NCBI GenBank assembly: GCA_005191425.1 | Contig: SUPR01000057.1 | Location: 1-23,593, forward strand | DNA: 23,593 nucleotides | Direction of reading: 5' to 3' | DNA from: Candidatus Helarchaeota ASGARD archaeon Hel_GB_B | GTDB lineage: Archaea; Asgardarchaeota; Lokiarchaeia; Helarchaeales; HEL-GB-B | Part shown: piece by piece, positions 20,107 through 23,593 of the stretch | Position numbering within the stretch: position 1 is the first letter of the stretch | Layout: the number at the start of each line of letters is the position of its first letter | Notes under the pieces: model-generated | What the model saw: the letters and a program-made list of their open reading frames with translations, nothing else | What the model was told of the DNA's origin: nothing | The model's database searches: none | Made by a program: the position numbers and the translations under genes

Positions 20107-20162
20107 AAATTTATTATTAATTTTATATATCTCCTCAATTGCACTCGTTTATTACGAACTAA

Positions 20163-20582
20163 TTTGGAAACCATTTCCTTACATCAATAAACAATAATTA
20201 ATGCTATCATATTCTTATAAAATGGAATGCTAATTACTGGGAATTAAAAATTGATAACAAAACTTATGGGGATGGATGTAATATCAAATTTAAAAATAAT
20301 ATAAACGAAGGCTTGAAATCATTCAAATTTATGACGGGGACTAACGATAGCAATTACGAAGTCTATATCGATGCGTTCGACTACTCCTAGGCTTGGGGTT
20401 ATTACGAGGGCAGAAATCTATACGATAAAGGTGGACTAACAGGAGGACACTACCTAAGCATTGAACGGTTTAATGTAATTATTTTAGAATTCCAAGACCC
20501 AATTGGACCATTCGTAAAGAGCATTAACATAAATTTAATTTCAGTTAGCTTATTCTATACTAAATTTACATGTAATGATTGA
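20163..20582 (+). pseudogene. Decayed fragment of a LamG/ConA-like surface-protein gene with in-frame stops
   Basis: One frame reads FGNHFLTSINNN*CYHILIKWNANYWELKIDNKTYGDG...FKFMTGTNDSNYEVYIDAFDYS*AWGYYEGRNL... Stops are TAA at 20199-20201 and TAG at 20388-20390. There is no start codon or upstream gene body. Confidence 0.55.
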
Positions 20583-20835
20583 AAAATAAGAGATACCTGA
20601 TGAATTGGACGAATTTAACTTGACAATTATAAAAATTCGTATATTAAGAATAATTTGGAAATTATTAATTCTTGACCGTATTTTGGGGATTTCCAAATAT
20701 TTTGGGCTTCGTAATATTATTAATAATTATTATGATGCCCAAACAATATTCAATTAAGAGTCCAATAATCAATGCAGCTTTTTATAAATTATTTATTTTA
20801 AGTAAGGTAAAATAAGAAATGTGTTATTATCATAT

Positions 20836-21012
20836 TTAGTGAGTTAAGATCGGTATTTTTAATGGATTATGTTTATCGCAATAAAAAAATAATTTATTAT
20901 CATCAATTATTGCTACTCCTTCTGATAAAATATAATAATTTTTATCAAGATATTCTTTTTTTATTCTAATTCTTTTACCACATATTCTACATTTTACCCA
21001 AACTTTTTGCAA
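20836..21012 (-). CDS. Small putative zinc-binding protein, 58 aa (paralog B); not in the ORF track
   Basis: TTG start. MQKVWVKCRICGKRIRIKKEYLDKNYYILSEGVAIIDDNKLFFYCDKHNPLKIPILTH. GGAGGT site at 21025-21030. Homologous to 21297-21461. Confidence 0.85.
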   Translation of the reverse strand: MQKVWVKCRICGKRIRIKKEYLDKNYYILSEGVAIIDDNKLFFYCDKHNPLKIPILTH

Positions 21013-21024
21013 TTTTTAAAATAT

Positions 21025-21030
21025 ACCTCC
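21025..21030 (-). promoter_or_regulatory. Shine-Dalgarno-like GGAGGT upstream of paralog B
   Basis: Plus-strand ACCTCC, 12 nt before the TTG start at 21012. Confidence 0.65.
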
Positions 21031-21296
21031 AAGTTTTTTTTTTATTATTTTTTTAAAATTTTCCGATTAATATAAAGAGTTGGTAGGATTTAAAGATTAC
21101 TCATTTTTTTCTTTAAAAATTGCCAAATTTTATTTAACCATTTTAAAATAATTTCATTCAATCTCTTTTTTTGGTAATTTCTTTTTCAGTTAAGATTTTT
21201 AAAATTTCAATAACAAGTGGGATCAAAATGATTAAATTCAATAGTAATAAAAAATCGATATGTTATAAGTTCAAGAATTTAAAATAGAAAGAGATA

Positions 21297-21461
21297 TTAT
21301 AAATCGATAATTGAGCTGTCATTATTACAATAAAATACGATTCTATTGCCAATAACTTTTGCAATTCCGCCTTCAACATAATAGACAGCTCTAGGGCCAA
21401 TTTCTTTTCTAATTCTTAATTTTTTATTACAATAATGACACCTTACAAAAATTTTCTCCAA
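21297..21461 (-). CDS. Small putative zinc-binding protein, 54 aa (paralog A); not in the ORF track
   Basis: TTG start. MEKIFVRCHYCNKKLRIRKEIGPRAVYYVEGGIAKVIGNRIVFYCNNDSSIIDL. AAGGAG site at 21474-21479. Homologous to 20836-21012. Confidence 0.85.
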   Translation of the reverse strand: MEKIFVRCHYCNKKLRIRKEIGPRAVYYVEGGIAKVIGNRIVFYCNNDSSIIDL

Positions 21462-21473
21462 ACTAAATCACGA

Positions 21474-21479
21474 CTCCTT
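21474..21479 (-). promoter_or_regulatory. Shine-Dalgarno-like AAGGAG upstream of paralog A
   Basis: Plus-strand CTCCTT, 12 nt before the TTG start at 21461. Confidence 0.6.
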
Positions 21480-21513
21480 AGGTTAAATATTAAATTGTTA
21501 TTAAATCAAATAA

Positions 21514-22710
21514 TTATATTAAATTTTCATAAAATTTTGATTTATTAGTTTGAATAATTTCAAACACAATATCAGTTAATTTATCATCTATATGTAAATT
21601 TTTCTTTAATCGATCACGAGAGAAATCTTTTAAATCTTTCGGAAAATGTTCTATTAAATTAACTGCAGTTATAAATTTTTTCAATTTGTAAGGTGGAACT
21701 CTATAGACCCATCGTTTTAAATAAATTATATTATTAAGTATTTCACTTATACGCAAATTAGTTTTATTCGACAATTCGGGGATATATCGAGGCATTCTAT
21801 CGAGGATTCCGTATTTTTTACATAAATTATGAGCTATTTTCATAAATTCTCGTCGTTCATAATCATGAGGTATAATAGGATTTCCGTATTGGTCGGCATT
21901 CAAGTACATTTTTTTATAAAGATTTGATAAATATGGGAAATTTTCATAGATAAATTTTAAGAAGATTTCGCGATTTCCAGGTTTTAGTGTTAGTCCAGAA
22001 AAAAGAATATATTTTACACCGATATCTGCTGCTTTTGAAATTATACCTTCAATATTTTCTGTAGTATCGCCAATTCCTGGAAGGATGGGCATAGCCATTA
22101 TTCCGGTTGTACATCCAAGTTTGCTAAATTTTTTCAATGCACCAAACCGTTCAGAAGTTGTTGAAGATTTAGGTTCGATCAATTTTTGAATTTTTTCGTC
22201 CATTAATGTAATTGTAAAAGCGATATTGACATAAGACATGTCTTTAAATTTTTGAATCAAATCGATATCTCTTAGTATTAGGTCAGATTTAGTTAAAATA
22301 AATAATGGTAATCCAAAATCAAGCATTATTTGTAAAAGTTTTCTTGTAATTTTGAATTTTTTCTCTGCAGGTTGGTAAACATCGCAAATCCCTCCACCAA
22401 TAGCAAATAATGGCGCTTTTAAGTTAGGTTTCATTACCTTTCGTTTTTCCGGAAAATAATGTAAGATAGTTCCATTTCCATATCTATTTATTGGACGAAA
22501 CCCTAATTTAATAAGTTCCTTATTTAGTAATTCTGGAGCATTTTTCTTTATCCGAATATGAGTTGTATATTCAGATATGTTGTAATGATTAGCTTGTCCA
22601 TCACAATAAATACATGCATGTTCGCACCCTCTATACGGGTTTATACTCCCGGATATCCAAAACCAAGTATCTACATTTTTATAGATATTAAGAATTTTTG
22701 ATTTGGACAT
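21514..22710 (-). CDS. Radical SAM protein (SplB / Rv2578c-like) with a C-terminal PolX-type HhH domain
   Basis: SINPYRGCEHACIYCDG (CxxxCxxC), DVYQPAE, ILTKSDLILRDID, EPKSSTTSERF, PILPGIGD. The last about 75 aa resemble the Pol beta/PolX 8-kDa HhH domain. Start placed at ATG 22710 (MSKSK). Confidence 0.88.
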   Translation of the reverse strand: MSKSKILNIYKNVDTWFWISGSINPYRGCEHACIYCDGQANHYNISEYTTHIRIKKNAPELLNKELIKLGFRPINRYGNGTILHYFPEKRKVMKPNLKAPLFAIGGGICDVYQPAEKKFKITRKLLQIMLDFGLPLFILTKSDLILRDIDLIQKFKDMSYVNIAFTITLMDEKIQKLIEPKSSTTSERFGALKKFSKLGCTTGIMAMPILPGIGDTTENIEGIISKAADIGVKYILFSGLTLKPGNREIFLKFIYENFPYLSNLYKKMYLNADQYGNPIIPHDYERREFMKIAHNLCKKYGILDRMPRYIPELSNKTNLRISEILNNIIYLKRWVYRVPPYKLKKFITAVNLIEHFPKDLKDFSRDRLKKNLHIDDKLTDIVFEIIQTNKSKFYENLI

Positions 22711-22796
22711 TATGACTTCATATTTCAAATAAAAGACCTTAAATTGATTAATATATAAAAGCATAAAAAAAAGTTATTGAATATTTAAAAGTAATA

Positions 22797-23593
22797 CTAT
22801 TCAGAATTTATTTTTTCATCAGCAATTTTCAGCAAATCATCATATTCTTTTTGGAAATATGATTTTATTATTTCTTTATATCTTAAAGCCATTGAGCTTA
22901 TCTCTTTTAATATAGATATAATTTCTTTTTGGTCCTCTGAAGTGGCCAGAATCTCTTTAAATTCTTTAAGTTTGGTGCCGACCCCTAATTTTAATTTTTG
23001 TTCGACCGAAAGCGGGAAATATTTTTCTATCAGAGTGTCTACACCCTTAAATACTTTAGTTTCGCCTCGCCATGTCTTTATCTTATTTCCATACAATTCA
23101 CCGAATTCTGAAGAAAATTTGTCGAGTCTATTCCTAATTATATTTAAATCTTTTTCCGCCATCAGTGCGATAATATAATTTGGACCGTGAGATAAAATCA
23201 CTTTCTTATCTTCGTGGTCAATTACTCTTAATACTTTTTTAGATTTCATTGTTTCAGTCACAAAATTCGTAATAGCAGCAATCATACCCGAAATTAAAGC
23301 AGGGTCTTGTAAATCTATTCTAAATGTCTTACCAAAAAGAGAGCCACCTTCTTTTGTCAGCCCAAAAATGTATAAAAGACTTTTTTCCCAATTTCGCTCT
23401 TCCAATTTTCGTAAGACATAAAGGCTAGTTGGAACGGTAATAATAATACCAATAATTATTGATAGAAGTATTGCCCAAGGAAAACTGATTTTAATCATTG
23501 AAAATGAGAATTTACTGTTCCCATATGCTGAGCCATCTGTCCAAAAAATAGTAATGGAACCTGTTCCTTCTTTCCATACAGAAGTTGAAATCA
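22797..23593 (-). CDS. Partial (5'-truncated by the window) type I membrane protein with a cytoplasmic longin/roadblock-like domain
   Basis: The frame stays open from 23498 to the window edge (ISTSVWKEGTGSITIFWTDGSAYGNSKFSFS precedes MIKISF). TM FPWAILLSIIIGIIITVPTSLYVL. Longin-like LYIFGLTKEGGSLF...DPALISGMIAAITNFVTE...IDHEDKKVIL...RLDKFSSEFGELY...W.GE...F. Confidence 0.82.
   Translation of the reverse strand, partial: ISTSVWKEGTGSITIFWTDGSAYGNSKFSFSMIKISFPWAILLSIIIGIIITVPTSLYVLRKLEERNWEKSLLYIFGLTKEGGSLFGKTFRIDLQDPALISGMIAAITNFVTETMKSKKVLRVIDHEDKKVILSHGPNYIIALMAEKDLNIIRNRLDKFSSEFGELYGNKIKTWRGETKVFKGVDTLIEKYFPLSVEQKLKLGVGTKLKEFKEILATSEDQKEIISILKEISSMALRYKEIIKSYFQKEYDDLLKIADEKINSE

Follow-up and report, generated by a model that had tools for sequence, protein, structure and literature searches.

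No part of archaeal genomes is less well charted than the small proteins. Among these, zinc-finger microproteins form an established archaeal class (PMC11241148, PMC10716476). In Haloferax volcanii, HVO_2753, HVO_0758 and other C(P)XCG proteins are stand-alone polypeptides of <70 amino acids (aa) with a predicted zinc site and mostly unknown functions, which contain two or four C(P)XCG motifs and form Cys4 ribbons (PMC11241148, PMC10716476). A pair of genes similar to these in the size of the products and the presence of a predicted metal site is found in a 23,593-nucleotide (nt) stretch of DNA from Candidatus Helarchaeota ASGARD archaeon Hel_GB_B (assembly GCA_005191425.1, contig SUPR01000057.1, positions 1 to 23,593 of the forward strand; hereinafter, the window). 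Unlike the Haloferax proteins, the products of these two genes, A and B, contain one CxxC and one CxxH/D motif each, lack the CPxCG signature and show no sequence relationship to that group. The pair adds a selection-tested family in Asgard archaea to the known small proteins. What is new is a well-supported family of probable archaeal zinc-finger microproteins that has no curated family; the class and the database entries were known already, and the predicted fold is of a familiar type.

Several other small zinc-binding proteins and domains invite comparison. The LIM domain, with the consensus CX2CX16-23HX2CX2CX2CX16-21CX2[C,H,D], is similar to A and B in that its second finger (C-x2-C-x16-21-C-x2-[C/H/D]) is a treble clef in which the last ligand, at the C-x2-X position, can be Cys, His or Asp (PMC2139825). 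Weak structural matches to the LIM proteins FHL2, PINCH, LMO2 and LMO4 (Z 2.0-2.7) were also detected, but the LIM domain is a eukaryotic module that binds two zinc ions, has a shorter spacer and shows neither sequence similarity to A and B nor any sign of common descent. The ribosomal protein eL24 (PF01246, clan CL0175), discussed at length below, is universal in archaea, whereas the A/B family is restricted to one genus. LysW is a Cys4 ribbon that carries its substrate on an acidic C-terminal EDWGE tail. LysW/ArgW is a zinc-binding protein of archaea, similar in size to A and B (about 55 aa), and, as represented by 3VPB chain F, the best PDB match of the model of B; by contrast, A and B are basic, end in IIDL and ILTH, and lie outside a lysine/arginine biosynthesis cluster. 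Membership in LysW/ArgW was rejected given that A and B have neither an EDWGE-type tail nor a Cys4 ribbon, the sole link being the structural match with Z 3.7. In this landscape, the pair is a solid but modest addition, limited to one genus, with a familiar-looking fold and no tie to a process of wider importance; its main use is in annotation, where the genes can be recorded as real, basic and probably zinc-binding, as judged from the sequences and models.

Coding status and distribution of the gene pair

Gene A (21297..21461, minus strand, 54 aa) and gene B (20836..21012, minus strand, 58 aa) both start with TTG, which in each case is immediately preceded by an in-frame stop, so that no longer frame is possible for either. 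A preliminary description of the window had placed two minus-strand open reading frames (ORFs) of these lengths and start codons at exactly these coordinates and had called them hidden. This holds insofar as both were below the cutoff of the ORF track used there; A, B and their orthologs are, however, already present in public protein collections, with NCBI listing the orthologs as hypothetical proteins of ‘Candidatus Helarchaeota archaeon', under the locus names ACTSRP_07830 and ACTSRP_07835.

A single BLASTP comparison aligns the two proteins without gaps, with 17 identities and 33 positives in 51 positions (E 6e-13), and so recovers the gap-free alignment with 17 identities, including Cys8, Cys11 and Cys45, that had been noticed before. 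The residues common to A and B are K3, V6, C8, C11, K13, R16, I17, K19, E20, Y27, G32, A34, N39, F43, Y44 and C45, and position 48 is, again as first described, Asp in A and His in B. The candidate ligands, C8, C11, C45 and D48 in A and C8, C11, C45 and H48 in B, form the pattern C-x2-C-x33-C-x2-H/D, and the chain ends 6-10 residues past the last of these, with ...SSIIDL in A and ...IPILTH in B. The basic character attributed to both proteins was borne out, with an isoelectric point (pI) of about 9.4. In DNA of 27% GC, the chance of a 55-59-codon open frame is about 0.006-0.009 per start.

The same tandem pair, with both frames open, is present in G001, the only congeneric genome in the set searched. 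The ortholog of A (P0005) is 74% identical at the protein level and again starts with TTG, and the ortholog of B (P0003) is 71% identical and has ATG at the aligned codon. Between the window and G001, the ratio of nonsynonymous to synonymous substitution rates (dN/dS, Nei-Gojobori) is 0.075 for A and 0.111 for B, with a dS of 1.6-2.2, that is, with the synonymous sites near saturation, and there are no frame-disrupting changes. Third codon positions hold 25 of the 42 differences in A and 24 of the 44 in B, and the Fisher p for the excess of synonymous changes is 2.5e-9 and 2.3e-8, respectively. The two ORFs align with their counterparts free of gaps, at 75% nucleotide identity, compared with 36-44% and many gaps in the flanking and intervening spacers. 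Given the conserved orthologs, the low dN/dS and the decayed spacers, the comparison with the congener establishes A and B as genuine genes under purifying selection, and the proposal of a duplication that gave an Asgard (Helarchaeota) archaeon two small-protein genes proves correct.

An exhaustive profile search with hidden Markov models (HMMs) in 1.84 billion representative proteins retrieved the two clusters and one more A-type protein, P0006 (56 aa, E 5.6e-16, 56% identical to A), encoded on the 2.5-kb ENA metagenome contig ERZ23498365. Word-indexed searches of 5.8 billion proteins returned just the window's own clusters and those of the congener, and scanning collections of metagenome and genome contigs for the pattern found the congener only. 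When 60 relatives and 400 genomes of the phylum were searched with the profile in all six frames, the family was detected in 2 only, the window's genome and G001. This search without an ORF-length filter, of the kind recommended at the outset, yielded the open-frame orthologs in G001. Within these collections, the family is limited to a single genus of Helarchaeota and one contig from a metagenome, and the suggestion of an Asgard-wide family does not hold. The DNA data sets that contain the stretch are hydrothermal-vent and marine-sediment metagenomes.

In all five sequences, C8, C11, C45, K13, R16, K19, E20, Y27, G32, A34 and F43 are invariant, each member contains exactly three Cys, and the pI is between 8.9 and 9.4. 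D48 is kept in all three A-types (C-[NDE]-x-D-S) and H48 in both B-types (C-D-K-H-N-P), that is, in the available sequences the His/Asp difference is fixed within each paralog lineage. The five-sequence alignment shows the duplication to be older than the split of these lineages. Side-by-side paralogs with a fixed His versus Asp at the presumed fourth ligand represent a natural experiment on how the choice of ligand tunes small metal sites.

Scans of A and B against Pfam, NCBIfam, PHROG and PADLOC produced no family match, in agreement with the earlier statement that the motif fits no recognized family. Sub-threshold library hits reach the CxxC knuckles only (PyrI_C, zf-CW and DUF6757), a sequence profile search of the PDB gave nothing under E 0.098, and an ESM Atlas feature search gave weak leads only, DUF2197 and DUF4428 (113-129 of 256 shared features). 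Residues 16-50 (Y-x-x-x-E/G-G-x-A-x-V-x-x-x-x-x-x-F-Y) match WG_beta_rep and choline-binding repeats with E from 8e-8 to 5e-4; these values are summed over 4-7 repeats, with an hhalign probability of 36% for a single repeat, and kinship with these repeats was rejected, the likeness being judged probably that of a generic beta-hairpin. Membership in the rubredoxins (PF00301) was rejected as well, in view of the three Cys in all five sequences and no Pfam match, and so was membership in archaeal TRASH (PF08394; C-x2-C-x19-22-C-x3-C), in view of the spacing of 33, the last pair C-x2-H/D and no HMM match.

Predicted fold and putative metal site

The AlphaFold2 (AF2) models, built on small family alignments, have a mean predicted local distance difference test score (pLDDT) of 78.6 for A and 74.3 for B and show an identical topology in two independent runs. 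In both models, strand 1 leads into the C8-x2-C11 knuckle and is followed by four further strands (4-7, 14-20, 26-30, 32-37 and 40-45 are the five strands of model A), C45-x2-H/D48 is located on a short helical turn, and the C-terminal 5-10 residues are disordered.

Among the top rows of a VIA-align comparison of model A, nearly all are zinc fingers: Pcf11 CCHC (Z 3.9), RIM, eS27, ZZ, FYVE, LIM, C1 and PARP-1, the label ‘treble-clef' for such rows being our own classification. The same list includes many entries for eL24/Rlp24, with Z 2.8-3.2 and a root mean square deviation (rmsd) of 2.1-2.6 Å over 40 residues. The best VIA-align match of model B is LysW (3VPB chain F; Z 3.7, rmsd 2.4 Å, 45 of 56 residues), followed by PHD, eS27 and eL24/Rlp24. 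In a Foldseek search of Swiss-Prot, archaeal eL24 fills the list (template modeling score by query 0.50-0.53, rmsd 1.9-2.5 Å, E >1), with residues 2-48 superimposed onto residues 1-36 of eL24, and shape matches in the ESM Atlas are Zn_ribbon families. Foldseek rows for Sac7d, with an rmsd of 9-10 Å, are meaningless and were discarded.

Going by these models, the nearest folds would be treble-clef zinc fingers, with archaeal eL24 foremost, every score being weak, and the most likely fold of A and B is a zinc finger with an eL24-like shape. A behavior similar to that of treble-clef zinc fingers is, from the same models, better supported than membership in eL24/TRASH. The preliminary description had set the pair apart from TRASH/eL24 fingers, which remains valid for the ligand spacing (the L24e of this genome has C-x2-C-x22-C-x3-C) and has to be qualified for the predicted fold, for which treble clefs, archaeal eL24 in particular, are the closest neighbors. 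The structure searches likewise give no confident match to any described family, in line with the novelty that had been supposed, together with this weak likeness to eL24 and treble clefs. Overall, what had been observed in the sequence is confirmed and the interpretation put on it is partly supported.

The reading that we consider probable is that A and B are independently translated sister genes for a small beta module that holds one metal and binds nucleic acid or protein. Under this scenario, an old tandem duplication gave rise to two functional, independently translated genes, and each basic microprotein would fold into a small five-stranded beta module in which one structural metal, probably Zn(II), is most likely bound by the C8-x2-C11 knuckle and the C45-x2-(His/Asp)48 turn, in a Cys3His site in the B lineage and in a Cys3Asp site in the A lineage. 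Such a pair of sites has a precedent because the last ligand in LIM fingers may be Cys, His or Asp (PMC2139825). The exposed ladder of Lys and Arg on strand 2 (K14/R16/R18 in A and R14/R16/K18 in B) might contact nucleic acid or an acidic partner protein. Binding of nucleic acid or of a partner protein is the preferred function, tentatively so, because of the DNA-repair setting of the enzyme family encoded next to A, the basic charge and the K/R ladder; that enzyme, of the radical S-adenosylmethionine (SAM) class, is a possible, unproven partner. Four alternatives, an eL24-like ribosomal factor, a protein with a redox role or another metal, a peptide precursor and a metal-free fold, are ranked below this function.

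Several observations weigh against this reading. Cys3Asp zinc sites are uncommon. Foldseek searches against the PDB and the AFDB clusters gave no match with E <0.4, and in VIA-align, run against 48,161 PDB chains, all Z scores are <4 and none is significant. Pfam zinc-finger models do not match A or B (hmmscan, E up to 1), and a six-frame search with PF08394 (TRASH) found nothing in the window's genome or in G001 at E up to 0.001. In hhalign, the family aligns locally with a profile of 19 Asgard L24e proteins from relatives at a probability of 44-49%, that is, <50%. The control eS27, which aligns through the CxxC knuckle and nothing else, does just as well locally and scores 11.0 globally. The four-ligand site in A and B is predicted from AF2 models, in which no metals are modeled, and AF2 is reported to be unreliable for the geometry of metal sites (PMC11241148). 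In H. volcanii, 9 of the 14 purified predicted zinc-finger microproteins held zinc and 5 were zinc-free (PMC11241148). RNA data sets containing the stretch are not listed, and no expression data were found. Finally, the adjacency to the radical SAM gene comes from close genomes only, and distant homologs of that gene adjoin an AlkD-like gene instead.

Relationship to eL24 and other readings of the microproteins

According to the predicted models, the A/B family would have in common with eL24 an N-terminal strand running into a C-x2-C knuckle, a hairpin that ends in [FY]-C and a second ligand pair that opens a helical turn; size and basic character are similar, and eL24 is also the best predicted-structure match. 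The differences are in the spacer (22 residues in eL24, 33 here), in the second ligand pair (C-x3-C as opposed to C-x2-H/D) and in the KRNPRK..WT tail, which only eL24 possesses. The C-x2-C-x~22-C-x3-C pattern and this tail are present in the L24e of the window's genome and in 20 Asgard L24e proteins, and absent from A and B. A six-frame PF01246 search of the genome found the real L24e on contig C105 only, and the Ribosomal_L24e model (PF01246) does not match A or B (hmmscan against Pfam, E up to 1).

A global hhalign alignment of the family with Asgard L24e has a score of 21.2, with gaps of 4 and 7 residues, and pairs the columns MxKI..C.[FY]C.K.[IL], Y-V-x-[DE]-G and [FY][FY]C. When columns were shuffled with the three Cys columns kept in place, the global score was 3.4 ± 3.0 and none of the 200 shuffles reached the real score; for the local score, 3 of 200 did. 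The 11-residue difference in size in the eL24 superposition equals the difference in ligand spacing (33 versus 22); the longer spacer is best explained by an insertion of about 11 residues. The profile alignments suggest, but do not prove, a distant relationship with eL24/TRASH; no membership is claimed.

A stronger version of this connection is that A and B are true, fast-diverged eL24 homologs of the TRASH clan, tail-less and associated with the ribosome or pre-ribosome, loosely like the eukaryotic Rlp24. The dominance of archaeal eL24 in the Swiss-Prot fold list, the recurrence of Rlp24/eL24 in the PDB list, and the global profile alignment to Asgard L24e that scores above all 200 shuffles all speak for such an origin. 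It is nevertheless unlikely, given an hhalign probability of 9-49%, no match to the Ribosomal_L24e and TRASH HMMs, the missing second pair C-x3-C and the absence of the whole rRNA-binding tail KRNPRK..WT. Moreover, the genome encodes a bona fide L24e at another locus, and a core ribosomal role is not to be expected of a genus-restricted gene.

Still less likely, A and B would be small beta proteins without any metal, in which the Cys residues serve as a redox switch, form a disulfide or contact a partner. Asp is, after all, unusual as a zinc ligand, and 5 of the 14 predicted zinc-finger microproteins tested from H. volcanii turned out to be zinc-free, with one of the two predicted fingers of HVO_2753 being empty (PMC11241148). 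Against this stands the invariance, in each lineage, of the three Cys and the H/D position at a dS >1.5, and the fact that the structural neighbors are nearly all zinc-binding domains.

An elaboration that combines metal binding with the eL24 likeness, and that we regard as improbable, is that the pair is a lineage-specific offshoot of eL24/TRASH recruited as two metal-differentiated subunits (Cys3His and Cys3Asp), maybe forming a heterodimer that targets or regulates the neighboring radical SAM-HhH enzyme of the DNA-repair type, or acting as a tail-less eL24 mimic on the ribosome. If so, the His/Asp difference would tune the affinity for the metal or its identity.

The rubredoxin motif is C-x2-C-x29-C-x2-C, which is close to the C-x2-C-x33-C-x2-X of A and B. 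Accordingly, a role in redox chemistry or metal handling can be envisaged, with Fe, Co or Ni in a rubredoxin-like site and with paralogs that differ in metal or potential, for instance, as electron donors to the radical SAM enzyme, the gene of which adjoins in all three lineages. Three of the five C(P)XCG microproteins of Haloferax that lacked zinc contained another metal (PMC11241148). Nonetheless, this is quite an improbable reading because no rubredoxin match was obtained in Pfam or in any fold search, A and B are strongly basic and lack the aromatic core motifs of rubredoxins, and the fourth Cys is absent in all five sequences.

Gene neighborhood and upstream signals

The upstream neighbor of A, which is of interest as context only, is a radical SAM gene of the PA0069/Rv2578c (SplB-like) group (21514..22764, minus strand). 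Its product matches Pfam Radical_SAM (1.3e-10) and, in NCBIfam, rSAM_PA0069 (4e-49) and rSAM_Rv2578c (1e-44), the latter two both under the curated cut-offs. This gene is found 5' of the A-type gene in each of the three lineages, at a distance of 52 nt in the window, 518 nt in G001 and 60 nt in ERZ23498365. In the latter contig, the genes at 505-1740, 1801-1971 and 2300-2506 encode, respectively, a 411-aa radical SAM protein with a weak HHH_8 match, the A-type microprotein and a 68-aa HhH protein (HHH_5); 329 nt separate the A-type and HhH genes, and no B-type gene is called. The next gene upstream in the window is an ORF (22797-23593) that runs off its end; in G001, the orthologous gene encodes a membrane protein of 751 aa, without a Pfam match, and the two products are 74% identical across 262 residues. 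In GCA_964646355.1, this membrane protein gene is annotated as two separate pieces, 175 and 570 aa long.

Downstream, synteny stops at B, which is followed by the ProRS gene in the window and by a ZIP transporter gene in G001, where this ZIP-family gene is convergent and starts 33 nt after B. A zinc-transporter link was dropped as a coincidence, the window's genome having only ZIP homologs of about 33% identity, on other contigs. Between B and the convergent ProRS gene, the window contains 730 nt of gene-free, very AT-rich DNA (20107-20835), in which Rfam and tRNA scans found nothing (the best Rfam hit being Yfr8, E 0.48), nor did they in the microprotein region; in G001, the corresponding space is taken up by the ZIP-family gene.

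Homologs of the radical SAM protein that are 32-39% identical and belong to other families of the class are encoded ahead of a gene for an AlkD-like protein of ~247 aa (PF08713, 6.8e-36), as in L037:1519-3404 of G007 and, likewise, in L041, L043, L045, L050, L051, L053, L057 and L058; at several loci, the start of the AlkD-like gene overlaps the radical SAM stop by 4 nt. In the window's genome and in G001, the PF08713 match sits on another contig. From these loci, the radical SAM and AlkD-like pair looks conserved, and the pairing supports a DNA-repair setting for this radical SAM group. The evidence for a functional link between the radical SAM gene and the microproteins is weak because the lineages are close, the gene further upstream is syntenic too, synteny downstream ends at B, and distant homologs precede the AlkD-like gene. 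A conserved radical SAM-microprotein module was therefore rejected in favor of ordinary synteny between congeners.

This neighborhood also bears on the notion that A and B are precursors of ribosomally synthesized and post-translationally modified peptides (RiPPs) which are modified by the upstream radical SAM enzyme. Small ORFs with Cys directly 3' of a radical SAM gene, at 52 nt in the window and 60 nt in the ERZ contig, are the arrangement that brings it to mind. It is very improbable, considering that the enzyme belongs to the PA0069/Rv2578c/SplB-like group of the DNA-repair type and that SPASM and RRE domains were not detected with Pfam and NCBIfam. In addition, the peptides are conserved throughout, with no division into a leader and a variable core, both are predicted to be compact beta modules, 518 nt separate them from the enzyme gene in G001, and B has conserved upstream elements of its own.

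As for these elements, a purine-rich site of the Shine-Dalgarno (SD) type had been reported exactly 12 nt upstream of each start. In the window, this is the case for both ORFs: AAGGAG (21474..21479, minus strand), read from the sequence, is located 12 nt 5' of the TTG of A, and GGAGGT (21025..21030, minus strand) is likewise 12 nt from the TTG that starts B, the spacing being 13 nt when the site is taken to be GGAGG. In G001, the site of B is maintained, TTGGAGG being kept at an equal distance from the aligned start codon, which is ATG there, and that of A is not, the ortholog having AAGGTG at 8 nt upstream. Genome-wide, the modes of the spacing before long ORFs are 7-10 nt for GGAGG and 8-10 nt for AGGAG, and the sites of A and B are both farther out than usual in this genome. 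The possibility that A and B are chance ORFs in AT-rich intergenic DNA, which the short length, TTG starts, unusually long SD spacing and lack of expression data might suggest, is refuted, as far as sequence evidence reaches, by the gap-free orthologs with dN/dS of about 0.1 amid decayed flanking spacers, the paralogy of A and B (E 6e-13) and the A-type copy in a third lineage.

Farther upstream of A, an A/T box, TTTAATAT (21487..21494, minus strand), was read from the sequence 25 nt 5' of the TTG; its G001 counterpart, TTAAATAT, is likewise exactly 25 nt from the TTG, and the box is possibly an archaeal TATA element. The spacer 5' of B, otherwise decayed, retains two short blocks in the alignment of the window with G001, TTGGAGG and the invariant A/T box TTTATATT (21069..21076, minus strand), which is 56 nt 5' of the start of B. 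The box TTTATATT could be the TATA element of B's own promoter, and the two surviving blocks would fit a dedicated promoter and ribosome-binding site for this gene. In the whole genome (28% GC), the first start codon of long ORFs is TTG in 25% and GTG in 11%, a rough count given that the first-start rule often picks the wrong start. Because a GGAGG-type site precedes only a small fraction of the long ORFs, SD-led initiation seems to be the exception in this genome.

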